A stretch of 61,292 nucleotides of DNA from an uncultured Bacillota bacterium (GCA_947168485.1 CAMVLZ010000005.1:1-61292), one strand, 5' to 3'; shown: positions 21,917 to 55,086, numbered from the stretch's first letter. Program-made: numbers and translations. Notes: generated by a model from the letters alone, not told the origin.

Positions 21917-21940
21917 AAAGAGATTTTTAAAAATCTCTTT
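21917..21940 (-). terminator. Rho-independent terminator
   Basis: Palindrome AAAGAGATTTTTAAAAATCTCTTT. Confidence 0.55.
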
Positions 21941-27500: not shown

Positions 27501-29815
27501 GTTCTTCCAGTGTTTTTATAATTATTAATAACATTTACTTCTAAACTATCCTCAATATATTTTTGAACTAAATTATAATCTAAATAAGTACCATCTTTTT
27601 TCAAAAAATCAAAACCAACAAAATAAGAAAAAGAAATGCTATCTTTTATACTTTTAGCATCAGAACTAACATTTATTCCTTTAGGTAATAATTCATAAAT
27701 TGAATATCCTTTTAACCTAATAGAATCATCCAATGTATTAAGATAATTATTTATTTCGTTTTCATTATATCTTTGACTATAACTATATAACGGATTAAAT
27801 TCAATCATATTTTTTCCAATAAAAGCCTTAATATTATTATCATTTACAAGCTGTGTAGTTTTCTCTTTAATATGAAATCTATATCCGGGATTACGAACAA
27901 AGTATTTTTTATATATCGACTTTGTACCAAATCTTAATTGTTTATGATCAAATTTATTAATGTCATAGTTTTCAATTTCATTTATTTGAGAAAAAGAAGG
28001 ATAACCAATACTATTTGATGAAGAAAAAAATTCATTGTTTTTATATCCTTCAATATAAGCAAAGTTATAAATATAACCATTTTCAGAAATATCAGTAGCT
28101 TTATTAATAACAACATTATATAAAATCTCATTACGATTAAATAAACTTTTAAAGGAAATATCTAAATTCTCAATATAAAAATAAAATGAACTAATTTTAT
28201 CATTTTCATCAAAAAACCACTCTTTAATTTGATTTTCATCAGAATAATTATAAAAAGAATCAAGCAATTGATATTCTTCATTACCTTTTTTTACATATAA
28301 TTTGATTTTATATTTATTAGAACTAACTTTCTTATTATAAACATCATAAAGAACAGGAAAAGATATATAATTATAATAATATTCATCTACATCTAATTTT
28401 TTATAACCATTAGAATCACTTACGTACACAAAATCATCACATAATTTTAAATCATATTTTTCTCCTAAATATGTTGAAATTGGTTTCATAGAATATGAAA
28501 TAATACCTTTATCTCCTAAATCTACATCCTGCCCTATTAAAGCATCATAATATGTTGAATCATAACTTGCATCAAATATTCTAGAACTCAAACTCCATGA
28601 ACCACTGGTATTGTTATGATTTTCAATATCATATAATAAATTATTATATTTATACTCATAGTTATTTAAATTTAATTCTATCTCATCTTCATCTACATAT
28701 TCAAAATCTTCTTCAGTAGGATATTTTACATATAATTTTGCACTATTAGTAATACTAGTATTATTTTGTTCTATAAATTGACTTTTTGGGTATCCAACAA
28801 TAATAATTGATTCAAATCTATATGTATCAGCATTTCTTCTATTAGAATTATAAAGCAAATATTTTCCATTGTTGCCTTCTATTTTATTATAATTTGAATC
28901 TAATACTATGACATTATCATCAAAATAATCCTCGATATATATTTCATCACCATGAACATTAGGATACTTATCATTTATATAATAATCACCATCTTTAATT
29001 ATAAATTTATATACTACCCAAGTATATGAACTATAATTAGGTAAATAATCAATATAATCAATTTTATTAGCTTGTTTAGTAAGCGTATAATCAACTTTTT
29101 TCCAATTAAACGTTTTAACTACATTCAAATTAAAAAATATATCATTAGAGCTAATAACATTATTTTGAGAAGATAATTTACAATTAACAACATCAGAAAA
29201 CTGATATTTCTTTTCTGTTACATATTTTTCAGGATTACCTGCTTTTGTAGAAAAATGATATTTCAATTGTATAGTTCCTTCAAAATTCGTATTTTTAAAT
29301 ATCTCATTTTCATTAGTCAAAATAATTTTACTTGGTGAGTTACCATAGTCTCCATTTTCAACTGTTTTCACAGTCCACTCATAACCTGAATGATAATTAT
29401 CATTAGCAGAAATAATATAAAAACTATTTAAATAGTTATTCAAGTTCTTTTGATTAGGAAATAAAGAATTAATAGTAATCTCTAGAGAACCAGCATCATA
29501 ATTTGTTGTAGTATTAGTATTTTTGTAGTTAATTTGAACAATTATATCTCTCGATTCAACATATTCAGGATCAACTGTCTTTAATTCCCAATTTATCTCA
29601 GTTAAAGGTGTCTTTCCATCATTAACTGTTGAATCATAGAATACTGTGGATATTTCCCAATTATCTAGTTCTACTACATTATCTGCTTTAAATAGTTTAG
29701 TAATTGATGAGACTATAGTATTTGTATTTACTAAAGGAAATAAACAAAAAAGCACTATAAAAGATAGTACTATTAGTTTAGATAAAGCAATAAATTTCTT
29801 TCTATTTTTTTTCAT
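24581..29815 (-). CDS. Giant cell-wall-anchored adhesin: signal peptide, about 1080 aa of unassigned sequence, five CnaB-type repeats, NPKTG sorting signal
   Basis: Start set at MKKNRKK, preceded by AGGTGAG. NPKTG at 24677..24691 is followed by a TM helix and a KNRK tail. The repeats carry KKWxDNNN..TRP...YxYxIxE. Confidence 0.85.
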   Translation of the reverse strand: MKKNRKKFIALSKLIVLSFIVLFCLFPLVNTNTIVSSITKLFKADNVVELDNWEISTVFYDSTVNDGKTPLTEINWELKTVDPEYVESRDIIVQINYKNTNTTTNYDAGSLEITINSLFPNQKNLNNYLNSFYIISANDNYHSGYEWTVKTVENGDYGNSPSKIILTNENEIFKNTNFEGTIQLKYHFSTKAGNPEKYVTEKKYQFSDVVNCKLSSQNNVISSNDIFFNLNVVKTFNWKKVDYTLTKQANKIDYIDYLPNYSSYTWVVYKFIIKDGDYYINDKYPNVHGDEIYIEDYFDDNVIVLDSNYNKIEGNNGKYLLYNSNRRNADTYRFESIIIVGYPKSQFIEQNNTSITNSAKLYVKYPTEEDFEYVDEDEIELNLNNYEYKYNNLLYDIENHNNTSGSWSLSSRIFDASYDSTYYDALIGQDVDLGDKGIISYSMKPISTYLGEKYDLKLCDDFVYVSDSNGYKKLDVDEYYYNYISFPVLYDVYNKKVSSNKYKIKLYVKKGNEEYQLLDSFYNYSDENQIKEWFFDENDKISSFYFYIENLDISFKSLFNRNEILYNVVINKATDISENGYIYNFAYIEGYKNNEFFSSSNSIGYPSFSQINEIENYDINKFDHKQLRFGTKSIYKKYFVRNPGYRFHIKEKTTQLVNDNNIKAFIGKNMIEFNPLYSYSQRYNENEINNYLNTLDDSIRLKGYSIYELLPKGINVSSDAKSIKDSISFSYFVGFDFLKKDGTYLDYNLVQKYIEDSLEVNVINNYKNTGRTLLKIIIHYKEPIILLPNSAYKGSASISFYYNWRETYENVEEYGNTIDNIVRASYLDADTISYNDVFNCSINSGVYYKKDKGYINNDEDVDLDAVDINDNGNEEEYFGFYRNTTILDSIISSHQDVQVSVQTDKSNYDTGKVDTSNDSEYYYKLRARTGSNDVTNLVIYDSLEKYAKDPNMANVLASGGRGSWQGEFLGIDTSYAESKGYTVKTYYSENETPGSLKDDDSWKVYTDSVDKTKVKSLAFEYLDDNGNPAILPANSLTYVLIKMKSPTDENIKTLAYNGCWTEWNAIDPITGDKVDFITGINSNIVKVALPNSVEPVDIDFRVDKFWKDNNNEKKLRPDSVNLQVVPDGDVTQAIDVPLGSTNADDSDSNHWYTTIRVPKYDNNGNTIVYTVREDEILLDNGYKYTPEIEDTTITNRLMKEIKLKKIWKDNSNSELTRPSNITYKVKQNGNNYKDVVITGDYSTNEWNKIISVPVYDSSNNEYSYSIEEVNVNNYSSNCEEFSCTNTLVGTDSIHITKRWIDNNNSYDTRPDDVNVEILRNGTRYKTIQLTKDNNWEYSEEVSKYDDNGNRYSYSIEENKVDGYDLVTYNQNTYEITNTLKTNMNIVITKKWIDDNNNDNTRPSELVVTLLRNDENYKEVTLTGDSDIWTSIVEVPKYDDNQKEYKYSIKEINDDISDYYSDITYEDDLTVINKLNKNTDLTIKKKWIDHNNEYSSRPNEVNIKLFRNNEEYKSLKLSGNDNTWESIVKDVPMYDESGKKYIYTIEEDNIDKYSKVTYDQSNLEVTNELTEIPKVTLYFTVVNGYVDPKTGKMKYDEFGLNEILKKYNKTLEDEYIFEFKLENTDTHKIYDGKLSTKGVLEFKDIPYGEYKAIVGKDKLFEFVDMLSIKDVNGVSFKKIGNEGYISIKPTGDNIVFGAKIINKIVSPVNNPKTGINIIFIIAFVLLIPIIVSKMIVKNRKVLDSY
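25110..26530 (-). repeat. Five tandem CnaB-like repeats of about 87 aa inside the giant adhesin gene
   Basis: Repeat openings are VDKFWKDNNNEKKLRPDS, KKIWKDNSNSELTRPSN, TKRWIDNNNSYDTRPDD, TKKWIDDNNNDNTRPSE and KKKWIDHNNEYSSRPNE. Boundaries are approximate. Confidence 0.75.
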
Positions 29816-29870
29816 ATATCTCACCTATTATAATAATTATATCATATAATAAAATTAAAAAAAGATTATC

Positions 29871-31374: not shown

Positions 31375-32076
31375 TTAATTAGAAAAAACAAATTGTTTAT
31401 TACATAGCATCTCTTCATGTCTATCTAAAGATAAATAACTAAATAATTTAACATCACTAGCTTTTAAATCATTATATTTAACTCTATCAAATCCAAATAA
31501 TCCATCAGTAAATGAAACATAAACTTCTGAAATATTATCACCTTTCATATCAAATTCTATATATCCTTGCATAGAATTCTTTAAAAATGGAGATTTTACT
31601 TTACTACCAAATATCTCATCAGATTTATTAACATTAAAATAATAAATTCCCTTAGACGCAGTACTACACTTAACATCAGTTCTATTATAAAAATTAATAA
31701 CTTGAGTAGTCATCTCTTTTACAGTTTTAACATATTCTTCTTTATTAGTTTCATCATAATGTAATAATCTAGGTACAACAAATATAATAAATAATATAAA
31801 TATTACAAATATTACAATAGTTCTAATTATCTTAAAGATTTCACCAGTATTATTATCTTTATTATTACTTTTATTATTTACTCTATTGTTATCTAAATAT
31901 TTTTGATTATAATCTACTCCTCCAACATCATTACTATTATCAGGATTATTATAATTATTTATAATATTTTCTTCTTCAGATGGTTTCTTTTTAAATAAAG
32001 GAAACTTACGTTTAGGCTTATTTTCTAATTCATCATCTCTTATACCATTATTATCATAATCTTTATTAATGAACAT
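31375..32076 (-). CDS. Hypothetical bitopic membrane protein (Asn-rich cytoplasmic N-terminus, one TM, extracellular domain)
   Basis: TM helix IIRTIVIFVIFILFIIFVV. Its C-terminal domain is paralogous to that of the adjacent gene. Confidence 0.5.
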   Translation of the reverse strand: MFINKDYDNNGIRDDELENKPKRKFPLFKKKPSEEENIINNYNNPDNSNDVGGVDYNQKYLDNNRVNNKSNNKDNNTGEIFKIIRTIVIFVIFILFIIFVVPRLLHYDETNKEEYVKTVKEMTTQVINFYNRTDVKCSTASKGIYYFNVNKSDEIFGSKVKSPFLKNSMQGYIEFDMKGDNISEVYVSFTDGLFGFDRVKYNDLKASDVKLFSYLSLDRHEEMLCNKQFVFSN

Positions 32077-32084
32077 CTAATCAC

Positions 32085-32828
32085 CTACCTACAAGAAGTA
32101 CTAATACTAGGAATATTAACTTTATAATAAGGTAACACATCTAATTTCTTTAACTCATCAACATTCTTCTCTCTAATACCAAATGTTCCATCACTTAAAG
32201 AAATCTTATATATATATTTACCATTTTCTTTTGTAACTAAAACATATCCAGTAAAACTATTTCCTAAATATGGAGATACTATATCTAAATTATAATCATT
32301 CTTTAAAGAATTAGAATTAAATTCAAATAAATACTCATCTCCTTTAGTACATTTACTAAAATTATTATTACCATATTTATTCTTTATCGCATTAACTATT
32401 TCTTTAGATTGATCTATATACTTTTGTTGACTAGTAGTAATTAATTTATATCCATATACCACAACTACTATAAATAATATTAAAACTACAGCTCTAGTAA
32501 TTCTATTTCTCATAGTAGCTTTTCTTTCACTATCAGTCATTTCAGCATTTTGAACTTCTTCTCTATACTCATCCATAGATCTATAAAATTTCTTTTTTTC
32601 TTTCTTAGTTTCTTCTTTTAAATTAGTAGTAAAAAATTTACTTTCATGTTCTTTTTTCTTTTTATTTTCTCTTTTAATAATCTTTTGAGCTTTTTTATCA
32701 TATTTAACTAAGAAATCATTATTATTATTATCATAATTAATATATCCACAATGAAAACAAAATCTATCTTTATAATGCATTTCATTACCACACTTAGGAC
32801 ATATTATAACCCCATTATTTTCATCCAT
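32085..32828 (-). CDS. Hypothetical bitopic membrane protein with an N-terminal zinc ribbon
   Basis: CPKCGNEMHYKDRFCFHCG zinc ribbon, a Lys-rich linker, one TM, then an extracellular domain paralogous to 31375..32076. Confidence 0.5.
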   Translation of the reverse strand: MDENNGVIICPKCGNEMHYKDRFCFHCGYINYDNNNNDFLVKYDKKAQKIIKRENKKKKEHESKFFTTNLKEETKKEKKKFYRSMDEYREEVQNAEMTDSERKATMRNRITRAVVLILFIVVVVYGYKLITTSQQKYIDQSKEIVNAIKNKYGNNNFSKCTKGDEYLFEFNSNSLKNDYNLDIVSPYLGNSFTGYVLVTKENGKYIYKISLSDGTFGIREKNVDELKKLDVLPYYKVNIPSISTSCR

Positions 32829-34277: not shown

Positions 34278-34955
34278 TTAATCTGCTTCACATATATAAA
34301 CAGTTTGTTTTGTATCACTACCCTTAGTACAAGTAATAAGAGTAAGAGTAGTCTTTTTATAATTTCTATATATACTTACATAACCATTCTTAGGAACAGT
34401 ATATATTTTTTTAATAGTATATTTATAAGTATTACCTTTATAATCTATATAAGCAACATCACCTACTTTTAACTTATATAACTTTTCAAAATAAGATATC
34501 CAAGCATCTCCAGAATGAGCAATTAATACTAAATTACCACCCTGAGTAGTAGGCATATTAGATCCTTTTAATAAAGTAACATTATATTGAATATCATTAT
34601 ATCTAGAATCTGTATTATAAAATCCTCTCTTCAAATATATCTTAGGTATACGTAATACTCCCAAATACTTACTATAATCTATAGGAGCATAAGTAACCTT
34701 CTTAGTTTTTTTCTTTTTCTTATCCATAGATACTACTTCATTACTAATAGGAGCACTAACCTCTTCTACTTTAGTAGTATCAGAAAAACTAATTAACATA
34801 TCAGAATATATTTCATCTTTTAAAGATAATAAACTATTCCATGATATAGCAATAAATCCTATAAAGATAAGTAAAGAGCCAAATAACAATATCTGGCTCT
34901 TTTTAATATTCTTTATTTTATTATTGATATTGTTTTTGATTTTTGATATTAACAT
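34278..34955 (-). CDS. Sortase-family transpeptidase (atypical: no Arg after the catalytic Cys)
   Basis: N-terminal TM, LVLIAHSG (His) and TLTLITC (Cys). The C-terminus after the Cys reads TKGSDTKQTVYICEAD. Its start overlaps the upstream adhesin gene by 35 nt. Confidence 0.75.
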   Translation of the reverse strand: MLISKIKNNINNKIKNIKKSQILLFGSLLIFIGFIAISWNSLLSLKDEIYSDMLISFSDTTKVEEVSAPISNEVVSMDKKKKKTKKVTYAPIDYSKYLGVLRIPKIYLKRGFYNTDSRYNDIQYNVTLLKGSNMPTTQGGNLVLIAHSGDAWISYFEKLYKLKVGDVAYIDYKGNTYKYTIKKIYTVPKNGYVSIYRNYKKTTLTLITCTKGSDTKQTVYICEAD

Positions 34956-38553: not shown

Positions 38554-39912
38554 TTACGCTAATTCTTTTCCTTTATCATCATCTAATATTTCAGTAGTAT
38601 CCTCAAGCATCTCTTCTATTTCAGAATTGGCTAAATTATCTTTACTCACTACAGGTTTAAATTTACTTATATCTATTATTTTATCATCTAACTTTTTACT
38701 TTCATTATTTAATGCTTGTTGTTTTTTATCTACTTCTCTAATTTTATCTATCTTCATTTGCATTTTTGCTATATCTCTACAAATATCTATTCTCAAATTA
38801 ACCATATTATCAGCACCTAATTCTTTAGTAGAATTATTACCACTAATAATATTAGATTTCCTTTCAACATAATTATTTAATATACCTTTAATATCTAGTA
38901 ATAAATCATCTCTAATTTCAGGATTAACAAAAGTTGATCTATCAACTAAATTATTAATTTCAGCTAAAATATTATCTTCTAATTCTAGAGGTTGAATAGG
39001 CTCTTCTTCAACAGTAACAGAATTAGGCATAACAACTTTATCAACATCAGTTAAATACTGTAAACTTCTTTGTTTAGCTTTATTAACTCTAATATCTCCA
39101 ACTTTTTCTTTTATATCATTAACCCATCTTTTAAGTCTAGGTAAAAGAAATGATAAGTCATTATCTTCTGGAGAAGCAAACATCAATACTCCTCCTTCTA
39201 TAAGAGCAGTCGCTAAAGCAACTAAACCTCCAGCTGCAGCTATTATTCCAATATTAGGAAGAGTTAAAACAGCTCCAGCAGCAAGTTTAATCCCAGTACC
39301 TAAAGCAGCAGCAGTAGGAAGTCCTGCAACAAGTCCAACTTTACTAGTTTGTTTAGCAACTTCTTTAGCATTAGTCTTATTCAAACTATCTAAATAATCA
39401 TAATACATTCTAGCTTCTAAAGGAGTAGGTTCTTCATGTGTTTTTTCTATTTTATGTACTACTTCTTTTATCATATTTTCATTTTTTCTTAATGTATCTC
39501 TACTCTTCTCTTTTTCATTACTTAATTCACATAAGGATTTTAAGTCTGTAACTACAGAAGAACCTCTACCAAAAACATAATTTTCTTTTTCTTCATCATT
39601 AATCACAACTTTATGAGCAACTTTACGACTAGTAGTATCCATACTTCTATTACTATAAAAATCTTGTCTAGAAACTTCTGCAAAAGTATCAGTATCTTTA
39701 TCATATTTAAAAGAAGCTTTATCATCATTAATTTTTTCAGTCAATTCTCTTATCCAGTCATCATATCTAATCTCTCTAGAAGAGAAAAGATCTTTTTCAA
39801 CTACAGTACCATATCTAGTAATATAATAATCCGTACCAAATTGATCTGCTCCATATGTTTTCAATAATTCAGTTTTTTCATTATTGATAGGTTCAATTAC
39901 ATTATCATTCAT
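38554..39912 (-). CDS. Hypothetical protein with a central Gly/Ala-rich hydrophobic hairpin
   Basis: Start set at MNDNV, preceded by GAGGTG. Central segment is GLVAGLPTAAALGTGIKLAAGAVLTLPNIGIIAAAGGLVALATALIEGGVLMFA. Confidence 0.5.
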   Translation of the reverse strand: MNDNVIEPINNEKTELLKTYGADQFGTDYYITRYGTVVEKDLFSSREIRYDDWIRELTEKINDDKASFKYDKDTDTFAEVSRQDFYSNRSMDTTSRKVAHKVVINDEEKENYVFGRGSSVVTDLKSLCELSNEKEKSRDTLRKNENMIKEVVHKIEKTHEEPTPLEARMYYDYLDSLNKTNAKEVAKQTSKVGLVAGLPTAAALGTGIKLAAGAVLTLPNIGIIAAAGGLVALATALIEGGVLMFASPEDNDLSFLLPRLKRWVNDIKEKVGDIRVNKAKQRSLQYLTDVDKVVMPNSVTVEEEPIQPLELEDNILAEINNLVDRSTFVNPEIRDDLLLDIKGILNNYVERKSNIISGNNSTKELGADNMVNLRIDICRDIAKMQMKIDKIREVDKKQQALNNESKKLDDKIIDISKFKPVVSKDNLANSEIEEMLEDTTEILDDDKGKELA

Positions 39913-39977
39913 AAGCACACCTCTATCTAAATTGAATTATACTATATGTACTCAACAAAATCAAAAAGAAGAGATTA

Positions 39978-40313
39978 TTAATCCTCTTCTTTACTAGATT
40001 TACTTGACAAAAATGTAACTTTTTCTGTAATTATTTCCATAATATTTTTCTTAATACTATTCTCTTCTACTACTTTAGATTGTATTCTTCCCTTTATCCC
40101 AACAATATCTCCTTTTTTACAATATTCTTGAGTATTAGAAGCTACTTGATCAAAAGCCAAGCAATCAACAAAATCAGTATCATAATTACCATCTATATTT
40201 TTAAAACTACGTGGAATTGCCAAAGTTATAGTTGAAACTTTAACTCCATTTTCAGACTTATTAACTACAACATCACGAGTTAATCTACCTACTAAGACTA
40301 CTTGATTTAAAAT
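39978..40313 (-). CDS. ssb: Short single-stranded-DNA-binding protein (SsbB-like, no acidic C-terminal tip) with a non-ATG start
   Basis: The OB fold begins at (I/M)LNQVVLVGRLTRDVVVNKSENGVKVSTITLAIPRSFKN..., which is 30 codons upstream of the TTG start used in the ORF track. The frame opens after TGA at 40326..40328. GGAGG at 40321..40325 is followed by in-frame ATC (40316) and ATT (40313). Confidence 0.7.
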   Translation of the reverse strand: MLNQVVLVGRLTRDVVVNKSENGVKVSTITLAIPRSFKNIDGNYDTDFVDCLAFDQVASNTQEYCKKGDIVGIKGRIQSKVVEENSIKKNIMEIITEKVTFLSSKSSKEED

Positions 40314-40438
40314 GATATCACCTCCTCAAAAACATATTAAAATAATGACTAATATTAATCAAATCACTAAAAGTATAAATTCAAATACAAAGAGATAATA
40401 AATTAATAAAATCAATTAAAGAAATTAATAATTACAAC

Positions 40439-40489: not shown

Positions 40490-42442
40490 CTATGTACCAG
40501 GTATAGGAACATATTTCTTTTCTGGTCCACTTGGACATACAAAGTTGAAATCTGATGCTCTATAAATGTCTCCTTTAGAATTTATACATAAATGATAATA
40601 TGCAGTAGTATGATAATGTCCAGCAGTACATGTCCATCCATAAGTACCATGTATTGAAGAACTACGATGCATACAATTAGCTTTTAATTTTTTTATAGTC
40701 TTTTTCCCTAAATAAATTCTAGTATAATTGCCTGCAGCATCTAAAATATGAGCATAGAATTTATGTTTACCAGAAGAATATTTCTTAGTCTTCTTATAAC
40801 TATATGATTTTTTATTTTTAATTTTTATACCCTTTTTTCTAATAGTTTTCATAGATGTCTTTTTTGTTTCATTAACATATACCCTATAAATACCACTATA
40901 AGTATCTTTTACTTTAAATTTAATAGTAAGTTTTTTAATATTTTTACTACTACCAGATATCTTAGCACTCTTTTTTACATATGTAGGATCAGTTAAATCA
41001 ATCTTATATGGACCATATGCATATTTTTTTCCACATAACAATGTCGTATTTTTATCAGTTGCTTTTCTTCTACCTCTTACCCATACAGCAAAGTAATGTA
41101 TTCCAGAAGTAGTAAATGGTTTTTTAATAACTCTACCACTAGTCGAATTCCAAGTTTTATTAATAAATGTCTTATTACCTATTTTTCTAAAATGTCCTTT
41201 GTTTTTCTTTTTTCTTAATTTTCTTGCCAATGTTTTACCTTTTTTGTACTTACCAGGTGTTTTTTCATAATAACCATCAGTTCCTACAGTAAGAGTATAT
41301 TTTATAGTTAATTTTTTATTTAACCAACCAGTTTGCTTCTTAGTAATTGTTGGACAACCAAATACAGCTGTTGGAATAGGAGGATCAGGATCAGTTACAT
41401 CACCTTGAGAAGTAATAGTTTCTTCATCCTTCTCTACAGCAGGAACATATATAGGACACGTTGCATTACGATTAGAATCATATTTATCTCTAATAGTTAC
41501 ATTTTTAGTTTCAGCCTTATCTTTAGCAGCAAATTCTCCAACATAAACATCACTATCACAACCATTAACACTAACACATGTAAATGAATAATGAAGTATA
41601 TCATTATCATCTAATTTAGTTTTTACATCTTTACAGCTTGCTTTTTCACCAACAGCCGTAATAGACATAGATTTTTCTCCAGTCCATACTCTACCTTCGC
41701 TGTCTACAGCTCTTAAGAACACCTTTAAATTAGAACTATTATTATCAGTAAATCTAGTTATATCACTTCTAACATTATATCTAGCAACATTAATAGATCC
41801 ATGTTTTTCAACTAAATTAATTTCACCTTTATAAATAGTATATGAATAATCTACTATTCTTAATTTAGAATTTGCTGTTAAAGCATCAGTTTCTATATTC
41901 ATTCTAATAATTGCAATTCTTTTTCCACCCTCAATAATTCCTTCTGGTTCAAATTCAATAGGAGCTCGTTCAGTTTCAGTTAATTTAGGTTCTTTCCTAT
42001 TAACACACCAAAGATGAGCAGTATAATGAACTTTATCAGTACCTCTTCGTACACGTACAAATGTATATTGACTCTTTTTAGCTTCTAATTCTTCAGGTCT
42101 CAAATGTTTTTCATCATATTCAGAAATAGTAGGTTTTGTTCCAATACAAGTTTCTTTATTAGCATCTTTAATCTCAGTAATATATTTATTCTTAACCAAA
42201 TTATCCATAGGAATATCTACAGCTTCTCCTACTTTTTTAGGTGTTGATTTAGTATTAGATAAATATGATTTAGCTGCAATAACAAGTTGTTTCTTTTGAG
42301 TATCATAATATCTTTCTTTAGAATTTTTAATATATGTAGAAACAGCAGGTATTGCTACCAACATAAGTATTCCAAGTATTACAACAGAACCAAGTAATTC
42401 AACCATTGTAAATCCTTTTTCTAGATTTTTTTGATTATTCAT
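40490..42442 (-). CDS. Giant modular type IV pilin-like protein (prepilin N-terminus, pilin head, Ig-like modules, Lys-rich module, Cys/His C-terminal cassette)
   Basis: Class III signal NLEKG|FTMVELLGSVVILGILMLVAIP with Glu at +5. Start set at the ATG at 42442 (MNNQKN). Confidence 0.8.
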   Translation of the reverse strand: MNNQKNLEKGFTMVELLGSVVILGILMLVAIPAVSTYIKNSKERYYDTQKKQLVIAAKSYLSNTKSTPKKVGEAVDIPMDNLVKNKYITEIKDANKETCIGTKPTISEYDEKHLRPEELEAKKSQYTFVRVRRGTDKVHYTAHLWCVNRKEPKLTETERAPIEFEPEGIIEGGKRIAIIRMNIETDALTANSKLRIVDYSYTIYKGEINLVEKHGSINVARYNVRSDITRFTDNNSSNLKVFLRAVDSEGRVWTGEKSMSITAVGEKASCKDVKTKLDDNDILHYSFTCVSVNGCDSDVYVGEFAAKDKAETKNVTIRDKYDSNRNATCPIYVPAVEKDEETITSQGDVTDPDPPIPTAVFGCPTITKKQTGWLNKKLTIKYTLTVGTDGYYEKTPGKYKKGKTLARKLRKKKNKGHFRKIGNKTFINKTWNSTSGRVIKKPFTTSGIHYFAVWVRGRRKATDKNTTLLCGKKYAYGPYKIDLTDPTYVKKSAKISGSSKNIKKLTIKFKVKDTYSGIYRVYVNETKKTSMKTIRKKGIKIKNKKSYSYKKTKKYSSGKHKFYAHILDAAGNYTRIYLGKKTIKKLKANCMHRSSSIHGTYGWTCTAGHYHTTAYYHLCINSKGDIYRASDFNFVCPSGPEKKYVPIPGT

Positions 42443-42496
42443 AATTCTCACACCCTTATATTTTTTACCTTATAAATATATGATATCACATATATC

Positions 42497-42522
42497 AAAA
42501 AAACTACATAAAAATGTAGTTT
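42497..42522 (-). terminator. Rho-independent terminator
   Basis: Stem AAACTACAT/ATGTAGTTT followed by a T-run on the minus strand. Confidence 0.6.
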
Positions 42523-42533
42523 AAAACATCAAT

Positions 42534-42944
42534 TTAAGAAACACGTAAGACAAAGTCTTTAGTATTCATTAATTTTTTCTCAGTAGTTTGATATTCAAAA
42601 AAATCTTTTCCAAAACCACTAAATTTATCAAATTGCATTTCATATGTTTTTTTATCACTACCAAAATCAAATATAAATTCTACCTTTGGTGAAACTTCAT
42701 CACTACTTTTATTTTCAACAGTTCCAGAAAATATAAACATACCTGTATCTAAAGATTCAACTATTTTTAAGTCTTTAACACAAAAATCATTATCACAATG
42801 TTCTTTAGAAAGAGTCTTATTTTGTAATACCTTCATTTCTCCTGAACCTTCATTAGAATCATTTAGATAAAAAAATATCGCTAAACCACCCAAAATAAAA
42901 GCAATTACAACTAAACCAATAATTATTACATATCTTTTATTCAT
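42534..42944 (-). CDS. Small N-terminally anchored membrane protein (paralogue of 43041..43448)
   Basis: 136 aa, one TM, conserved HCDNDFCVKDLKIV and FFEYQTT..LMNT.D..LR.S shared with its neighbour. Confidence 0.6.
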   Translation of the reverse strand: MNKRYVIIIGLVVIAFILGGLAIFFYLNDSNEGSGEMKVLQNKTLSKEHCDNDFCVKDLKIVESLDTGMFIFSGTVENKSSDEVSPKVEFIFDFGSDKKTYEMQFDKFSGFGKDFFEYQTTEKKLMNTKDFVLRVS

Positions 42945-42998
42945 ATAGCCTCCTAATCATTCAACCTACCATCTATATTAATAATACCACAAAAAGTT

Positions 42999-43028
42999 AA
43001 AAAACTACACATATAAAAATGTGTAGTT
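42999..43028 (-). terminator. Rho-independent terminator (paralogous to the one at 42497)
   Basis: Stem AACTACAC/GTGTAGTT followed by a T-run on the minus strand. Confidence 0.55.
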
Positions 43029-43040
43029 ATAATTAATTTA

Positions 43041-43448
43041 TTAAGATAATCTTAGTGCATAATCCTCAGTATTCATTAAATTATCATCTGTAGTTTGATA
43101 TTCAAAGAATTGTTTATCAAATCCTTCAATAGATTGAAATTCCATTTTATAAACTCTCTTCTTATCACCTACATCAAATATAAACTCTACATCAGGTTCA
43201 ATAGCCTCATCTGTTTTATTCTCTATATAACCAGAAAATACAACCATATCAGCATTTAATGCTTTAACTATTTTTAAATTATTAAAACAAATATTCTTTT
43301 CACAATGTTCTTTTGAAACCATCTTATTCCTTAATAATTTTACTTGATCCATAGGAACATCTGATTTATTAAAATAGAAATATAATCCAGTACAACCACC
43401 TATGATAACTGCGATAACTAAGATAATTACAATAATCTTCTTTTTCAT
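43041..43448 (-). CDS. Small N-terminally anchored membrane protein (paralogue of 42534..42944)
   Basis: 135 aa, one TM. SD GGGAGGA lies upstream, 15 nt after the stop of the 650-aa pilin-like gene, so the two genes are probably co-transcribed. Confidence 0.6.
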   Translation of the reverse strand: MKKKIIVIILVIAVIIGGCTGLYFYFNKSDVPMDQVKLLRNKMVSKEHCEKNICFNNLKIVKALNADMVVFSGYIENKTDEAIEPDVEFIFDVGDKKRVYKMEFQSIEGFDKQFFEYQTTDDNLMNTEDYALRLS

Positions 43449-43463
43449 ATTTTCCTCCCAATA

Positions 43464-45416
43464 CTACCAACCAGAAATTGGTTTATATTTTTTCTCTGGA
43501 GCTGTAGGACATACATAGTTAAAGTCACTAGCTCTATATACTTTTCCACTTGATGAAACACATAAATGGTAATATGCCTGTAAATGTGAATGCCCACCAG
43601 TACATACCCAAGAAGAAGTACCATGCTTAGAAGCACTACGATAGTTACAACTTGCACTATATTTAGGTATTTTTTTACTACCAATTTTATGTTTCGTATA
43701 ATTACCAACTCTATCTACAACATGTACATAGAAAGTATGTTTTTTAGAAGAATATTTACTAGTCTTCTTATATGTATAAGATGACTTATTCTTAACAGTT
43801 TTTCCTTTCTTCTTAACAGTTGCTGGTTTTAAAGTTTTACTAGATTCATTAACATATACAGCAGCAATTCCACTATGAGCATCTTTAACTTTAACCTTAA
43901 CAGTTAATTGCTTATAATTACTCTTAGTAGAAGATACACTACCACTTACAAACTTAGGTGCAGTTACATCAACTTTATATGGACCATAAGCATAAGTAGG
44001 ATCACATAATTTAGTTGTAACTGTTCCATTCTTTGTAGTCTTCCATTTAACTCTAACACCAAAATAGTATGTACCAGATTTTGTATATTTTTTAGTATAT
44101 GAATGTTTAGTTTTACTATTCCAAGGAATAGAAGTAAAAGTAGTATCTTTTTTTAATTTAACTTTTTTAGAATGATCATCTCTACGAGTTCTACTCCATC
44201 CACTAGATGCCTTAGGAACTAATCTAAAAGCATATGTAGCTTCTGATAAAGAATAACCAACATTAATAGAACCTTTAGTCCAACCTTGAGAAAGAGGTTT
44301 TACTGATGGACAACCGGTTTTAGGTGGTGTAGGTGTAGGTGTATTAGTACTTGGAGTTGGTGTTTCATCCAAAACAGCTGGAGGTACTTTAAGGTAACAT
44401 GTATAATTATACTTAGAATCAACTTTATCTTCCATTTGTACTGGAAGATCATATTCTCTATTTAAAGTAGCTTTATATGATCCAGTATATACATCACTTA
44501 CACATCCATTAGGACTTTCACATATAAATGAATAATAAAACATATTATCATCTTCATTAAATGATGTAACTTTTAAATTATCAGGACAAACAGCATGACC
44601 ACTAATTGAATCTGGAACAAAATTCATTTCTCCAGTAAATATTCTACCATCACTAGCAACAGCTCTTAAATGAGCAGTCAATGTAACACCATCTTTATCA
44701 ACATATCTAGTAATATCATGTTTAGCACTATAATTTTTCTCATTTATAGCACCACTCTTCTCAACTAAATTTACATTTCCTTTATAAATATTATAAGTAT
44801 AATCAACTATCCTTAAACTAGGATTATTAACTAAATCACCAGGTTTTAAAGCCATAGTAATAGTAGCAACTCTTCTACCATCTATAACATTACCACTAGC
44901 ATTAAAAGTAAGATCTAAACTATTAACTATTGGTAATTCAGAATCATTATTATAATTAACACAATATAAATGAGCAATATACTCTACTTTTTTAGAAGTT
45001 TTAGTTACTCTTACAAAAGTATATTGATTTTTTAATTTTTTTAATTCCTCTTTTTCTTCTTTAGATAAATTAGGTTTATCATAAGCAGAAATATCTGGTT
45101 GAGTTCCAACACAAGTCTGTTTATTAGCATCTTTAATTTCAGTAATATATTTATTTCTAACTAATTCATCCATAGATATATCAAGAGAATCGCCAACTCT
45201 TTTTGGAGTCTTTTTAGAATTAGATAAATAAGACTTAGCAGCTATAACAAGTTGTTTCTTTTGAGTTTCATAATACCTATCTTTAGAAGTTTTAATATAC
45301 TTATTAACAAAAGGTATAGCTACCATCATAAGTATTCCAAGTATAACAACAGAACCAAGTAATTCAACCATCGTAAAAGCTTTATTTTGTTTTTCTTTTT
45401 TACTATTTTTTTTCAT
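43464..45416 (-). CDS. Giant modular type IV pilin-like protein (paralogue of 40490..42442)
   Basis: Class III signal KQNKA|FTMVELLGSVVILGILMMVAIP (Ala at -1, Glu at +5). Collinear with its paralogue along the whole length. SD AGGAG upstream. Confidence 0.8.
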   Translation of the reverse strand: MKKNSKKEKQNKAFTMVELLGSVVILGILMMVAIPFVNKYIKTSKDRYYETQKKQLVIAAKSYLSNSKKTPKRVGDSLDISMDELVRNKYITEIKDANKQTCVGTQPDISAYDKPNLSKEEKEELKKLKNQYTFVRVTKTSKKVEYIAHLYCVNYNNDSELPIVNSLDLTFNASGNVIDGRRVATITMALKPGDLVNNPSLRIVDYTYNIYKGNVNLVEKSGAINEKNYSAKHDITRYVDKDGVTLTAHLRAVASDGRIFTGEMNFVPDSISGHAVCPDNLKVTSFNEDDNMFYYSFICESPNGCVSDVYTGSYKATLNREYDLPVQMEDKVDSKYNYTCYLKVPPAVLDETPTPSTNTPTPTPPKTGCPSVKPLSQGWTKGSINVGYSLSEATYAFRLVPKASSGWSRTRRDDHSKKVKLKKDTTFTSIPWNSKTKHSYTKKYTKSGTYYFGVRVKWKTTKNGTVTTKLCDPTYAYGPYKVDVTAPKFVSGSVSSTKSNYKQLTVKVKVKDAHSGIAAVYVNESSKTLKPATVKKKGKTVKNKSSYTYKKTSKYSSKKHTFYVHVVDRVGNYTKHKIGSKKIPKYSASCNYRSASKHGTSSWVCTGGHSHLQAYYHLCVSSSGKVYRASDFNYVCPTAPEKKYKPISGW

Positions 45417-50341: not shown

Positions 50342-52282
50342 TTAATATCTATCATTTCCAAGTATACTTTGAGCATCCTCAAGTATTTTCGCAAGATTAT
50401 TGCTACCTTCAACTTGACTTCTTAAATTAGATAATTCTTCAGTTTGAGAATTAATAATTCTTTCTTTATCTCTAACTCTATCTTCTAAACTATCCATTTG
50501 AGCTTTTAATCTATCAATTTGATCTTCATAATTTTGAATAGATGATCTAATTCTATCTCTATCTTCTTTAGCTCTATCTACTACTTTTCTATTTAAATCA
50601 GTTAATTCTTTAACTTGATTTCTATATTCATCTAATTCATTCATTTGATTCTTATTAGCTTCAATTAATCTAGTTATAGTATTTGCTGCAGTATCCATAA
50701 TACTTCCTCCAGTATTACTTCTAGGAGCAGAATAACTATAAGAATCATTATAATTAGATTTAATATCTAAATTCTTAACAGTATCTCTTCTAGTTAAATC
50801 ACTTAAGAAATCATCAAAATTATCTTTTCTCTCTTTTCTTTCTATTCTTTCTTCTCTTCTATTCATAACACTATCTAAATCTCCAAATAAATCTTCATTT
50901 TCATCATTAGATGCAAATTTATGATCAAAATTAACTTCATCTAATAAATTATCATCTTCTATTTTTTCTACTTTAGATTCTTCTTCCTCATCTTCAACAA
51001 CATTAAATTTATTATAATCTAATGAAGGTATAGAAATAGGTTCTTCTTCGATAGTATCTGTTTTTACTTCACTAAATGGTAAATCGAAATCATTTTCTTC
51101 AACTTCTTCTTCTTTAGGAGTAAATGGTACTGAAATCATTTCTTCTAAACCTGCATATGCTGGAGAAGGAACTGAAATCATCTCTTCAGGATTATAACTT
51201 TCTTCAGCAACTGGTACTTCTGGAACAACAACTTCATTTTGTTCTTGTACAGGTACTGAAATAACATCAGCTAAGTCTTCTGTAGACTCTTGTGCCACAG
51301 GTACTTCTGGTACTTGAGGAACAACTTCTTCTTGAGCAACCGGTACTTCTGGAACAACAACTTCACTTTGTTCTTGTACAGGTACTGAAATAACATCAGC
51401 TAACTCTTCTGTAGATTCTTGTGCTACAGGAGGTACTACAGGTACATCTGGAGCAATTGCTTCTTGAGCAACTGGTACTTGAGGCACTGGAATATCAGCA
51501 GGAGCAACAGTATCAGTTTGAGCAACAGGTGCTGCTTCAGATAATGTCTCAGTAGTAGCATCTGCACTAACAGCAGGAACTTGTTCACCATTCATAGCAT
51601 TATCTATTACAGTCTTATCAACATCAACATCATTAACATCAATATCAGTGAATCCAGCATTAATTGGAACTTCACCATTAGGTACATTAGTAGTATCATT
51701 TAATGTCATAGTAGCTAATGAGAACTTATCTAATGCACTTTCTTTAGTATTATCACTTAAGAATATAGTATCAGAATTCTTATTTATAGCAATAAAACTA
51801 TAATACTTATCATTAACTAAATTCTTACCATCTAAATCAAATAAACTTGCTTCACTAAATTGATCATTAAATAGAAATCTACCATCAGTTCCCATTTCAG
51901 AAAAAACTTTATCTTTAACCAATGCAGTAGTACTAACTAACTTAGTAGCAGCAAGTGGATCTTTTCTAGTTTCACATGCTTCAATAACACAAGGAGATAC
52001 TGGTGTTGATTTTTCTACTAATAAAATATCTTTAGTAACTAACTTAATATTTTTATTCTCACAAGGTATTACAATATTCCCTTCAGCATCAATAACACCA
52101 ACATTAGAATGAACAACTGAAGAATCTATTGCCTCAACTAATGTAGAAGTAACTATAATATTATTATTAGACAACTTACTGTCATTCAAAAAGTAGAATT
52201 GACGGCCATCATCCGTAATCCCATAAGTACAAATAATATCGCTACGATCTTTATATTTTACTAACCCCTTTTGAATTTTCAT
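50342..52282 (-). CDS. Hypothetical protein: globular N-terminal domain, Pro/Val/Glu-rich tandem repeats, C-terminal coiled coil
   Basis: 646-aa ORF with no signal peptide or TM. Internal repeat is STEELADVISVPVQEQSEVVVPEVPVAQE. Confidence 0.55.
   Translation of the reverse strand: MKIQKGLVKYKDRSDIICTYGITDDGRQFYFLNDSKLSNNNIIVTSTLVEAIDSSVVHSNVGVIDAEGNIVIPCENKNIKLVTKDILLVEKSTPVSPCVIEACETRKDPLAATKLVSTTALVKDKVFSEMGTDGRFLFNDQFSEASLFDLDGKNLVNDKYYSFIAINKNSDTIFLSDNTKESALDKFSLATMTLNDTTNVPNGEVPINAGFTDIDVNDVDVDKTVIDNAMNGEQVPAVSADATTETLSEAAPVAQTDTVAPADIPVPQVPVAQEAIAPDVPVVPPVAQESTEELADVISVPVQEQSEVVVPEVPVAQEEVVPQVPEVPVAQESTEDLADVISVPVQEQNEVVVPEVPVAEESYNPEEMISVPSPAYAGLEEMISVPFTPKEEEVEENDFDLPFSEVKTDTIEEEPISIPSLDYNKFNVVEDEEEESKVEKIEDDNLLDEVNFDHKFASNDENEDLFGDLDSVMNRREERIERKERKDNFDDFLSDLTRRDTVKNLDIKSNYNDSYSYSAPRSNTGGSIMDTAANTITRLIEANKNQMNELDEYRNQVKELTDLNRKVVDRAKEDRDRIRSSIQNYEDQIDRLKAQMDSLEDRVRDKERIINSQTEELSNLRSQVEGSNNLAKILEDAQSILGNDRY
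51213..51430 (-). repeat. Tandem direct repeat with a 129-nt period (1.7 copies, near-identical) inside 50342..52282
   Basis: ggtacttctggaacaacaacttca...tgtgc[c/t]acagg occurs at 51213 and again at 51342. Confidence 0.8.
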
Positions 52283-52437: not shown

Positions 52438-54408
52438 TTAATTCCATTCTGCATATAATTTAACAGTAATATCACTATGTTTAAATTCATTCTTTCTATT
52501 TATTTCATTAGCAAAGGCTTCAACTGTAGAAAAAGTAGTATTTTCTGAAATCTTTTTAGAAGCCGTCGAACTACCAACATGCCATTTTCCAGTAGCAGAA
52601 TGATTAGTATATCTCATAAACAAATTCCAGTGAACCCCATCGGCACTATGACCAGAACTATAATCTCTCAATCCCTTACTAGAGAATCCATCAGAAGTAC
52701 GAACAGCCCCTGCACTCCTAAATACAAGGCCAGATCTATCACCAGTACAACCATCATAATTACTTGATCTGCTACATCCATCTCTATACTCTCGTGGAAT
52801 CGATAATGGACAAGCCTGATCAGCTGAAGCACTCAAATGACCACCGTTAGTATAATACTCTAAATATAATCTATTTTCATCCCAGTTTACATATAAAGTT
52901 TTACTTTTATTACCTTTATCCAAGTCATCGCATATTTTTTCAGTCTTAAGATTGCCATTTATTTGTGTATAAAATTTTCCGTTATTTCTCCAAGCTTTAG
53001 CAGCAGAATCAACATGATACCAATCCTTAGAAGCACTAAAATGTCCAGATGTTGCATCTTTCAAATCACAATAACTTCCATAGTGACAAGTTTGAGTTGT
53101 TGCATTCCTATAAGCTCCAAATTCTCCACCATTAGGATCATATGTGATAGTACATACATTACCAATCCAATTAACTTTCATAGTCTTTGATACATTCCCA
53201 GTTTTCAAATCATCTCCACATAAACTAAGAGCTGTATAAGAACTTCCAATTTGAGTATAAGTACTAGTTCCATCTGTCCAAGCATTAGAAGCATCAATAT
53301 AATATCCTGCTTTTCTTGCTTTATAATGTCCAGAAGCATCTCTCAAATTACAAGAACTATTATAATTACAAGTTTGTTTTTTATCACTACTATTATTGTG
53401 CTCTCCAAAGCTTCCACCGTTAGCATCAAAATTCAAAGTACACACATTAGTATGCCAATTTACATATAAAGTTTTAGCGCTATTGTCATCACCTAAATTA
53501 CTACAAATATCCTCAGCTTTATATGTATTATTAACTTGAGTATATGTAGTAGATCCATTTTTCCATGCATTACCACTTTCTACATGATATCCTATTTTTG
53601 AAGAATTAAATCCAGAACTTGTAGCATTCCTTAAATTACAAGTTTCTCCATAATTACATTTTTGTACAGTTTTATCCGTATCACTATTAAAACTTCCACC
53701 ATTAGCATTATATGTGATAGTACAAACATTAGCACTCCATTGTGCAACTAAAGTAACATCATTTGTCGCCACTGTATCTTTATCAACAGGTTCTGAGCCA
53801 ACTTTCCAACCACTAAAAGTATACCCATCTCTTTCAGGTTTACACAATGTTCCCCATTTAGAACCATGCGTTTGTTTCTTAGTTTTATCACTACATCCTC
53901 TTCCACCATTATCATTATATCTAAGAGTATAAGTATTAATTTCCCAATTAATATACAAATCAACAGTATGATCAGTTTTACGAACATTATTATAAAAATC
54001 CAAATCTGTATAATCAAAATTTTGATTATATGAAGCTCCTGTACCATCAGGTTTTGTATTCCATTCTTTTTTATCAACAGGATGATATCCAGTTTTACCA
54101 ACATTTAACCAATCAGGATTATTACAATTTAATAAACCAGTTGATCCCAAACTACCCCTATATGGAATTCTATGTATGTACAAATTATTATCACCACTAT
54201 GTACAACATTTCCACTATTATCTAAATAATAATGATTACCATTAATTAATTTACCACCATTCGCATGCATCTTTATTAATACATGACCAACATAGTATTC
54301 TACTTTATATTTCCAATTATCATTTCGACTTGTTTTATTATTATCTACATCCTCTATAGTACCATCTAACTCTAATGTATATATAGTATTATCAGTTAAA
54401 TTATCCAT
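52438..54408 (-). CDS. Listeria-Bacteroides-repeat (Flg_new-like) module ORF. The open frame actually extends to 54666 and is in frame with the upstream pilin gene.
   Basis: Contains YTLRYNDNGG...RDGYTFSGWKVG and three Cys-rich repeats of about 95 aa (NVCTITYNANGGSF...LYVNW). No signal peptide, and no SD before the ATG at 54408. See the first finding. Confidence 0.6.
   Translation of the reverse strand: MDNLTDNTIYTLELDGTIEDVDNNKTSRNDNWKYKVEYYVGHVLIKMHANGGKLINGNHYYLDNSGNVVHSGDNNLYIHRIPYRGSLGSTGLLNCNNPDWLNVGKTGYHPVDKKEWNTKPDGTGASYNQNFDYTDLDFYNNVRKTDHTVDLYINWEINTYTLRYNDNGGRGCSDKTKKQTHGSKWGTLCKPERDGYTFSGWKVGSEPVDKDTVATNDVTLVAQWSANVCTITYNANGGSFNSDTDKTVQKCNYGETCNLRNATSSGFNSSKIGYHVESGNAWKNGSTTYTQVNNTYKAEDICSNLGDDNSAKTLYVNWHTNVCTLNFDANGGSFGEHNNSSDKKQTCNYNSSCNLRDASGHYKARKAGYYIDASNAWTDGTSTYTQIGSSYTALSLCGDDLKTGNVSKTMKVNWIGNVCTITYDPNGGEFGAYRNATTQTCHYGSYCDLKDATSGHFSASKDWYHVDSAAKAWRNNGKFYTQINGNLKTEKICDDLDKGNKSKTLYVNWDENRLYLEYYTNGGHLSASADQACPLSIPREYRDGCSRSSNYDGCTGDRSGLVFRSAGAVRTSDGFSSKGLRDYSSGHSADGVHWNLFMRYTNHSATGKWHVGSSTASKKISENTTFSTVEAFANEINRKNEFKHSDITVKLYAEWN
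52866..53736 (-). repeat. Three tandem Cys-rich repeat units of about 95 aa in the module ORF
   Basis: Units begin ANVCTITYNANGGSF, TNVCTLNFDANGGSF and GNVCTITYDPNGGEF, and each ends ..(L/M)(Y/K)VNW. Boundaries are approximate. Confidence 0.7.
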
Positions 54409-54666
54409 ATTAGGAGGATTAGTAACACCTTTAGTCTTAGTAGGTTCATAATTCTTATTATTAAAATTAATAAAACCAGAATATCCATTAATAGGTTTAC
54501 CATTCTTTTTCCATTGATAACTTACTGTTTGATTTGCTTTTAATCCTACTCCTACATCAGTAATAGTAACTTTTAAATTAGGTTGTTCACCAACATAATA
54601 GTAAGGAAAACCAAAACCACTAATATCTTTAATAGTTAGAACAGGTCCCTTACCATCTTCTAATTC

Positions 54667-54669
54667 TCA
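54667..54669 (-). other. In-frame TGA separating the pilin head from the downstream 742-codon open frame
   Basis: Minus strand reads ...AAT GAA TTA AAA CAA TGA GAA TTA GAA GAT GGT AAG..., all in the same frame. Confidence 0.9.
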
Positions 54670-55086
54670 TTGTTTTAATTCATTTGGCTTTTTTCCAGAT
54701 CCATAAACAATCTTATTATTTTCTCTACAAGTAACATAAGGATCATAATTATAATTTCCTTTTTTATTTCTTCTAACATAAATAAAAGTATCTTGTCTTC
54801 CACAATCTGTATTTCTTAATTGAATATCATCAATTAAATCTTTTTCTTTTAAATCCGCATAAGTAACTATAGCACAACCAGTATTGGTAGATCCAAACAT
54901 ATCTTCACTATAAGCATCAGTATATGCTTTACTAGCCATACTAATTGCTTTTTCATAAGCAACAAATTTTTTATCACGATTAGCAGCCTGAATATATTTA
55001 ACAGATGGTATAGCTAAAATCATTATAATACCCATTATCGCAATTGCAACAACTAATTCAATCATTGTAAAACCTTTATTCTTCAT
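54667..55086 (-). CDS. Type IV pilin-like protein (139 aa as terminated by TGA)
   Basis: Class III signal MKNKG|FTMIELVVAIAIMGIIMILAIP with Glu at +5. The pilin head carries a Cys pair (CAIV...C, DC...VTC) and is homologous to the heads of the 650-aa paralogues. Confidence 0.85.
   Translation of the reverse strand: MKNKGFTMIELVVAIAIMGIIMILAIPSVKYIQAANRDKKFVAYEKAISMASKAYTDAYSEDMFGSTNTGCAIVTYADLKEKDLIDDIQLRNTDCGRQDTFIYVRRNKKGNYNYDPYVTCRENNKIVYGSGKKPNELKQ

Follow-up and report, generated by a model that had tools for sequence, protein, structure and literature searches.

A stretch of 61,292 nt from an uncultured Bacillota bacterium (GCA_947168485.1 CAMVLZ010000005.1:1-61292), analysed as a whole and referred to here as the window, contains at positions 40490-45416 an island that encodes two giant modular prepilins, A1 and A2, and two small membrane proteins, b1 and b2. 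We read A1 and A2 as tip-displayed modular minor pilins that would serve as adhesins for polyanions, each with a cognate membrane partner of the b type, and give this reading a probability of roughly 0.55. The island contains the following elements.

43464-45416, minus strand: A1, a giant modular prepilin of 650 aa (open reading frame, Pfam N_methyl, AlphaFold2, Foldseek, alpha1 profile match and charge profile).
43041-43448, minus strand: b1, a bitopic membrane protein of 135 aa (open reading frame, AlphaFold2, family alignment, isoelectric point (pI) of 4.7).
43003-43028, minus strand: a hairpin followed by a T-run, resembling an intrinsic terminator, 3' of b1 (terminator scan and sequence reading).
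42534-42944, minus strand: b2, a 136-aa paralogue of b1 (open reading frame, 48% identity to b1).
About 42495-42522, minus strand: a hairpin (AACTACA...TGTAGTT) followed by a T-run, 3' of b2 (read from the sequence).
40490-42451, minus strand: A2, a giant modular prepilin collinear with A1 (open reading frame, Pfam N_methyl, paralogy).

The two large and two small open reading frames of the original prediction are all present on the minus strand at these positions. A1 and A2, which had been described as collinear but diverged, are 48% identical over their full length (E = 6e-177), and b1 and b2, each with one N-terminal transmembrane segment, are paralogues as proposed (48% identity, E = 1e-43). 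The paralogous terminators expected after b1 and b2 were both located, with sequences related to each other; the one after b2 has fewer than 3 G-C pairs and was missed by the automatic scan. A2 can start from a GTG at 42451 (653 aa) or an ATG at 42442 (650 aa); judged by a 99% identical protein from another sample that begins at the same position, the ATG is more likely. Between sufB and A1 lie 92 bp with a ribosome-binding site and an AT-rich hairpin that is followed by a T-run. A1 and b1 are probably co-transcribed, and b2 appears to form its own transcription unit because it is placed between two terminators. Since related terminators follow b1 and b2, a transcription order of A1-b1 / b2 / A2 on the minus strand seems reasonable.

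The class III signals claimed for both large proteins are present. The motifs are K-G/FTMVELL and K-A/FTMVELL (the slash marks the predicted cleavage site), with the leader ending in Ala in A1 and in Gly in A2, and both proteins combine the leader, Phe at +1, Glu at +5 and the hydrophobic stretch that characterize the signal of a type IV pilin. Pfam N_methyl scores 25.3 bits for A2 and 22.8 bits for A1, both above the gathering score of 21.2, and A2 also exceeds the TIGR02532 cutoff (17.9 against 16.3). In the alignment of 10 family members, Phe1, Glu5, Gly14 and Pro22 (mature numbering) are invariant or nearly so; Glu5 and Pro22 have been implicated in filament packing and melting of alpha1N (PMC10628169). 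The A-family profile matches solved type IV pilins over alpha1 only (Geobacter PilA-N, 2e-9; Streptococcus sanguinis PilE1, 5e-7). The many NCBIfam pilin and pseudopilin matches of A1 and A2 are likewise limited to the N-terminal helix and lie far under the equivalog cutoffs, so that neither the ComG pseudopilin nor the GspG cutoff is reached (ComGC 19 vs 75, ComGE 23 vs 49 and GspG 22 vs 89 bits).

The AlphaFold2 model of A1 predicts the lollipop fold of a pilin, with a 52-residue helix (residues 16-67) followed by three strands (77-81, 134-139 and 144-149), and the head is modelled at a predicted local distance difference test score (pLDDT) of 72-85. The Cys pair that had been assigned to the pilin head corresponds to C102 and C152 of A1; both residues are invariant in the family and close the small beta-sheet head in the model. 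Across the 10 aligned members, a conserved unit of about 345 residues precedes variable C-terminal parts. Neither large protein carries a sortase signal: A1 ends in ...KPISGW and A2 in ...VPIPGT with no hydrophobic tail, while the sortase-type substrates elsewhere in the window end in NPKTG and a transmembrane segment.

The AlphaFold2 model of A1, built on a 10-sequence alignment with a mean pLDDT of 68.7, divides the protein as follows.

Residues 1-13: leader, ending in Ala.
Residues 14-67: alpha1 helix.
To about residue 152: pilin head.
Residues 165-266: Ig-like beta-sandwich.
Residues 277-345: small beta domain with four Cys.
Residues 346-370: Pro/Thr linker.
Residues 371-476: basic module, poorly predicted.
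Residues 477-585: Ig-like beta-sandwich, confidently predicted (pLDDT 84-92).
Residues 586-650: cassette of 65 residues with four Cys and His, of low confidence.

The Ig-like segments, the Pro/Thr linker, the Lys/Arg-rich module and the Cys/His cassette listed in the original prediction could thus all be located. The pilin module is joined by the Pro/Thr linker to modules that are not specific to pilus biology, the arrangement by which Raynaud et al. (2021) define a modular pilin. A search of the PDB with Foldseek returned RTX-adhesin extender domains, SiiE, RbmA and an S-layer protein for A1 (E from 5e-7 to 1e-4), none of the matches being an enzymatic fold, and the identity of A1 to these Ig-repeat stalk adhesins is 8-13%. 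The distal part of A1 is predicted to have a stalk architecture of tandem Ig/FnIII-like domains. The proposal that the large proteins form an undescribed family agrees with the profile searches: scans of A1 and A2 against Pfam, NCBIfam, PADLOC and PHROGs recognized only the N-terminal pilin motif, apart from sub-threshold Ig-like matches, among them weak Pfam matches of residues 477-585 to DUF7743 and Big_13. The four-Cys cassette, which is 60% identical between the paralogues, had no match in the PDB profile search or the Pfam scans.

The distal half is strongly cationic. Residues 371-650 carry a net charge of +44 in A1 and +56 in A2, and are composed of 22-28% Lys and Arg and 4% Asp and Glu (12.6% and 14.5% in the housekeeping proteins of the window). 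This property is kept in the three relatives that were measured (A and A' of RGIG2824, and P0006), with charges from +33 to +45. The C-terminal modules are swapped among A-family members and residues 1-345 are conserved; two members carry additional Pfam modules, PF05345 in P0008 and PF09479 in another.

The small proteins have a different build. In the AlphaFold2 model of b1 (pLDDT 90.6), residues 2-26 form a transmembrane helix, from which a short linker leads to a beta-sandwich of seven strands. Searched exhaustively with a profile, 1.84 billion representative proteins yielded a b family of only 22 relatives, each 134-170 residues long, and the family alignment shows as invariant the two Cys of an HCxxxxC motif, Asn77 and Phe91. 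From the HC motif onward, the ectodomain is acidic in all 22 members (pI 4.1-5.8). No family was recognized in b1 or b2 by Pfam, NCBIfam, PADLOC or PHROGs scans. A phage origin of the genes was rejected, IMG/VR viral contigs having yielded no relative. An assignment of b to the pilus alignment proteins PilN and PilO, which have a ferredoxin-like fold, or PilP and GspC, which have an HR beta-sandwich domain, found no match in Pfam or NCBIfam (E up to 1 or 0.01), and neither PilP nor GspC occurs in the Foldseek PDB top 50, in which the best match is DUF1425 (E = 8e-3). We rejected a lipoprotein, as the Cys near the end of the transmembrane helix occurs in b1 only and is not conserved in the family, which has no conserved lipobox.

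Two neighbouring genes of A-family or prepilin loci are recorded here. A 130-aa transmembrane protein (L018 3034-3426), encoded downstream of an 842-aa prepilin, has a sub-threshold match to chagasin (I42; 23.8 vs 27.2 bits), and a Peptidase_C1-LRR surface protein adjoins the A-family gene of L025. A chagasin-like inhibitor was also considered for b and rejected, the b family having no I42 match.

The genomic neighbourhood of b was compared in 11 contexts: two in the window, three in RGIG2824, two in L027 and one each in RGIG5711, L024, L026 and L030. A cassette-bearing giant gene is located immediately upstream of b in seven of them and immediately downstream in two (b2 of the window and b0 of RGIG2824); the second b of L027 follows its b paralogue, and the RGIG5711 context is taken up below. 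Counted together, 9 or 10 of the 11 contexts have a giant gene with this cassette beside b. In the four distant contexts, the gene directly upstream of the first b encodes a large Ig-rich protein that ends in a cassette of the A1/A2 type, and an alignment of nine cassettes shows C13, W26, Y38, C42, G47, C59, P60 and G72 to be invariant. In L026 this upstream protein is represented on the contig by its last 131 residues, and the b homologue from which the context of L027 and its near-identical copies was traced is the second member of a tandem pair. No b follows the members with other C-termini, namely P0005, P0007, the 842-aa L018 protein and a third prepilin of the window; the gene after P0007 encodes a further prepilin. 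Surplus b genes occur in RGIG2824 (three b to two A) and in L027 (two b after one giant). The original prediction of a dedicated small partner, which called for co-occurrence in other genomes, is upheld in that b stands beside a giant gene in the window, RGIG2824, RGIG5711, L024, L026, L027 and L030, and is refined in one respect: in gene order, b goes with the Cys cassette at the C-terminus of the giant protein and not with its pilin head.

The machinery of the window was searched by reading all open reading frames of at least 100 aa, by Pfam scans of the uncharacterized ones and by tblastn with PilB, PilC, PilD and PilM of the Mariniplasma type IV pilus operon and PilD of RGIG5711. The earlier statement that no pilus machinery lies nearby holds for PilB, PilC and PilD, none of which was found in the 61-kb window; it had missed a third prepilin gene.

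52438-55086, minus strand: a third giant prepilin gene of about 882 codons, belonging to a second head family (motif scan, Pfam, tblastn).

This gene matches Pfam N_methyl (33 bits) and Flg_new (43 bits) and consists of a pilin module (54667-55086, the first 139 codons) followed by Listeria-Bacteroides repeats. Its single interruption is an in-frame TGA at 54667-54669, directly after the pilin module, beyond which the frame runs for 742 more codons, the last 656 being the listed open reading frame 52438-54408. The TGA falls on a Cys codon of the intact 842-aa homologue (L018 488-3016), and a single tblastn alignment crosses the stop. The TGA is not a sign of genetic code 4, which was rejected because the long housekeeping reading frames are intact under table 11 and 6 of 49 reading frames end in TGA. 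The third prepilin may have become a pseudogene, the stop may be a sequencing error, or it may serve to produce a short pilin on its own.

Machinery genes were found in RGIG5711, a relative whose PknB is 69% identical to that of the window. In this genome, pknB-rsgA-rpe is followed by the genes of three giant prepilins (1,398, 1,065 and 1,038 aa) and of a b homologue, ruvAB is followed by that of a 722-aa prepilin, and an orphan 146-aa pilin has the same N-terminus, KGFTMVELLGAIVIL. It also encodes a PilC-type platform protein with two T2SSF domains (1e-49), directly upstream of a PilD (L011 15584-16351; A24_N_bact, 1e-26, and Peptidase_A24), and this pilC-pilD pair is placed between tgt and a dnaB-like gene. 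The pilC-pilD pair, the four giants and the 146-aa pilin (L011 14091-16351, L010 5277-16442 and L012 5189-5629) all lie scattered among housekeeping genes. Because the pilus genes of RGIG5711 are scattered, scattering appears to be normal for the lineage, and the lack of machinery near A1 and A2 would reflect this arrangement.

Both families are very rare and confined to low-GC uncultured Bacilli. The A family comprises about a dozen 90%-identity clusters among 5.8 billion sequences (a second, alignment-based homologue search returned two fragments only), and its head module is common to proteins of 560 to more than 1,000 residues. Every retrieved locus has a G+C content of 26-31%, and the source samples, where named, are metagenome-assembled genomes from ruminant gut labelled 'Bacilli bacterium' (goat omasum, sheep duodenum). 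In RGIG2824, whose SufB is 93% identical to that of the window, the island between sufB and ssb/tdk reads b0-A-b-A'-b'. Two metagenome contigs show other arrangements, L015 with an 843-aa A protein and a fragmented A paralogue (132 + 619 aa), and L018 with the 842-aa prepilin of the second head family and an A protein. From these comparisons, the island between sufB and ssb/tdk is hypervariable and turns over quickly, with an A-b unit that duplicates.

A second strain, 99.4% identical to the window (L042), has the same order A1-b1-b2-A2-ssb. Between the two strains, A1 differs by four synonymous and two non-synonymous codons, b1 is identical, and b2 differs by one synonymous codon. A1, A2, b1 and b2 are maintained, because they are intact and conserved in this strain. 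A2 (L042 2707-4659 vs window 40490-42442) differs by four synonymous and seven non-synonymous codons, and six of the seven fall in residues 400-473 of the basic module, which may be a sign of local diversifying selection, the numbers being small.

According to the reading preferred here, the class III signal would direct A1 and A2 into the membrane by the Sec pathway, and their cleavage after Gly or Ala would fall to a prepilin peptidase whose gene lies elsewhere in the genome. The canonical alpha1 helix (Phe1, Glu5, Gly14, Pro22) would then allow their entry into a type IV filament, the other genes of which would be scattered elsewhere in the genome. A1 and A2 would be placed at the filament tip as minor subunits because they are far too bulky for the filament body. 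From there, each may hold out an Ig-like stalk of about 500 residues, the distal half of which is cationic and ends in a small, presumably disulfide-rich knob, and stalk and knob together would form an adhesin whose polyanionic ligands could be DNA, teichoic acids, mucin or glycans of plants or the host. As long as the giant pilin is still anchored in the membrane, the acidic ectodomain of b would most likely bind its cassette or basic distal region, and would stabilize or shield the protein up to its loading onto the filament. The analysis shows the sequence features, the predicted folds, the linkage of the genes and the presence of PilC and PilD in a relative, whereas cleavage, entry into a filament, position at the tip, ligand and A-b binding are inferred.

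Several observations weigh against this reading. For the signal, the TIGR02532 score of A1 (15.9) is just under the cutoff of 16.3, and the -1 position of A1 is an Ala (codon GCT); Gly and Ala are both accepted at -1 of a class III signal (PMC9934059). For the distal part, the confidence of the A1 model is low at 371-476 and 586-650. PilB, PilC and PilD are missing from the window, and the retrieved loci of the lineage, which yielded PilC and PilD, contain no assembly ATPase. The linkage of b is imperfect: b2 and b0 stand upstream, not downstream, of their A gene; the b of RGIG5711 sits between giants that lack the cassette, after the 1,398-aa prepilin; and the four distant giants are cut at the 5' end by contig breaks inside the repetitive gene, so that their N-termini are not covered. 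The b-family alignment contains no class III motif, and Foldseek searches of b against PDB and viral structures returned generic beta-sandwiches only, none better than E = 2e-3. Because b has neither a pilin-like signal nor a structural relative, its role is argued from gene linkage and charge.

The alternative that survives best, which we consider doubtful, is display that does not depend on a filament. The class III signal and alpha1 would then serve as a membrane anchor only, with or without cleavage by PilD, and A1 and A2 would be cell-bound, wall-spanning adhesins with b as co-anchor or co-receptor. In some archaea, proteins that form no filament are driven by class III signals, and Planctomycetes and Verrucomicrobia have large families of prepilin-type paralogues. 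The same explanation would account for giant genes that are orphaned among housekeeping genes in every genome examined, for the lack of an assembly ATPase in any locus retrieved and for the several giant prepilin paralogues per genome (up to 1,398 aa), which are many for tip subunits. Against it, Glu5, Gly14 and Pro22, residues tied to filament packing (PMC10628169), are invariant. The platform protein PilC encoded beside PilD in RGIG5711 also speaks for a filament, the body of which could consist of the lineage's own small pilins, whose N-terminus is the same.

The arrangement of the b genes bears on a further explanation, which we regard as improbable: the cationic cassette or basic distal region would be an antibacterial or envelope-active effector on a pilin carrier, and b a membrane-anchored acidic immunity protein. 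In its favour are the conserved head with swapped C-termini, the complementary charges of A and b, the small gene immediately downstream of the cassette in seven contexts, the separate transcription unit of b2, the b genes that outnumber A in two loci (RGIG2824, L027), and the hypervariable island with broken paralogues. Against it, the Pfam, NCBIfam, PADLOC and PDB profile searches recognized no toxin domain, and the cassette, at 60% identity between the paralogues, is conserved and not polymorphic. Giants with other C-termini have no consistent matching small gene (P0007, as noted, is followed by a prepilin), and A1 is under purifying selection with b1 identical between the two strains. An extension of the idea, in which a type IV filament or a minimal PilC/PilD pathway would present the cationic, disulfide-knotted cassette to neighbouring cells, b would protect the producer, surplus b genes would act as orphan immunity genes and the sufB-tdk island as a polymorphic arsenal, is in our judgement a long shot. 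Decay into non-functional remnants of a lost pilus system is hardly credible: the in-frame TGA of the third prepilin, the fragmented A paralogue (132 + 619 aa) of a relative and the lack of machinery in the window would fit it, but A1, A2, b1 and b2 are all intact, the second strain is 99% identical with mostly synonymous change in A1 (4 vs 2), the orthologues are intact in another species, and all structural Cys and the signal motif are invariant.

Directly downstream of A2, a gene at 39978-40330 (minus strand) encodes a short SsbB-like single-stranded DNA-binding protein. The open reading frame list shows 81 aa only, but a truncation was rejected, as the frame is intact and the start codon is other than ATG, GTG or TTG. 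Short proteins of this kind are competence-associated in some Firmicutes. The neighbour may be relevant to a DNA-binding role of the basic pilins, or it may be a coincidence. Two conserved proteins flank the island, one of 646 aa (50342-52282, minus strand), which has a repeat region rich in Pro, Val and Glu and a coiled coil at the C-terminus, and one of 454 aa (38554-39918, minus strand) with central hydrophobic segments; neither belongs to a curated family, and both are syntenic in RGIG2824.

Elsewhere in the window, three surface proteins (20607-21860, 21939-23252 and 24581-29824, minus strand) end in NPKTG and a hydrophobic tail, a variant of the sortase signal; two of them are closely paralogous, and the remaining one is a repeat protein of 1,747 aa. 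Sortase genes are located at 34278-34955 and 9089-10063 (minus strand), near the NPKTG proteins. The NPKTG proteins and the two sortase genes indicate a cell wall and, as a second system of surface display, one that relies on sortase. The adjacent genes 31375-32076 and 32085-32828 (minus strand) have a similar layout, each encoding a transmembrane segment and a C-terminal Cys-containing domain, and the product of the latter has an N-terminal zinc ribbon.

The many functions gained by simple type IV filaments have been ascribed to modular pilins, of which only a handful have been studied. A1 and A2 belong to uncultured Bacilli of low G+C content that have been met in ruminant guts, and in this lineage the pilus genes all appear to be dispersed as orphans. 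Should A and b indeed interact, monoderms would have a novel means of handling or regulating bulky tip subunits, and the pair could lead to colonization factors in a gut microbe about which little is known.

A survey of modular pilins lists more than 1,200 proteins in 264 architectures, with lengths of up to 860 residues (PMC8179133). The size of A1 and A2 is therefore not without precedent, and relatives in the lineage reach 1,398 residues. The 860-residue protein of Candidatus Falkowbacteria and the IPR012902 + PF05345 (He_PIG) architectures resemble A1 and A2 in that N_methyl is followed by long arrays of Ig-like domains or repeats (PMC8179133), whereas the cassette, the basic module and the linked b occur in no catalogued architecture. 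One A-family member is publicly annotated as 'prepilin-type N-terminal cleavage/methylation domain-containing protein'.

In S. sanguinis, the pilus is capped by two modular pilins, PilB with a vWA module and PilC with a lectin module, the latter of which is bound and stabilized by the small pilin PilA; modular pilins in general are thought to be located at the tip (PMC8179133, PMC9934059, PMC10628169). A1 and A2 share with PilB and PilC a monoderm host, the class III signal with alpha1, a small pilin module and bulky grafted modules with a predicted adhesive role. They differ in the graft of about 500 residues, in which a basic module and a Cys cassette accompany three to four beta-sandwich domains and no vWA or lectin domain is recognized, and in the location of the A and b genes outside any pil operon. 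The PilA-PilC pair is the closest functional precedent for b, a small partner that may stabilize a large protein; unlike PilA, b is not a pilin, lacks the class III motif and has a predicted beta-sandwich fold.

The large minor pilins of the CofB/TcpB type (type IVb) and GspK of the type II secretion system also combine a pilin module with extra beta-rich domains and are located at the tip, where they initiate or cap the filament. However, the A family shows no sequence or profile similarity to them beyond alpha1, and in contrast to A1 and A2 they are encoded inside the machinery operons of diderm bacteria and have no dedicated bitopic partner. The predicted stalk fold of tandem beta-sandwich domains resembles that of RTX adhesin extenders, SiiE and RbmA, which are exported by type I secretion or Sec and, unlike A1 and A2, have no pilin N-terminus. 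Relative to these systems, the head family with swapped distal modules, the basic stalk with a four-Cys cassette, a bitopic partner that is not a pilin and is linked to this cassette, and the orphan, island-like gene organization in the lineage are new. As a whole, A and b look like a rare variant of modular pilin adhesins, not a new kind of system.

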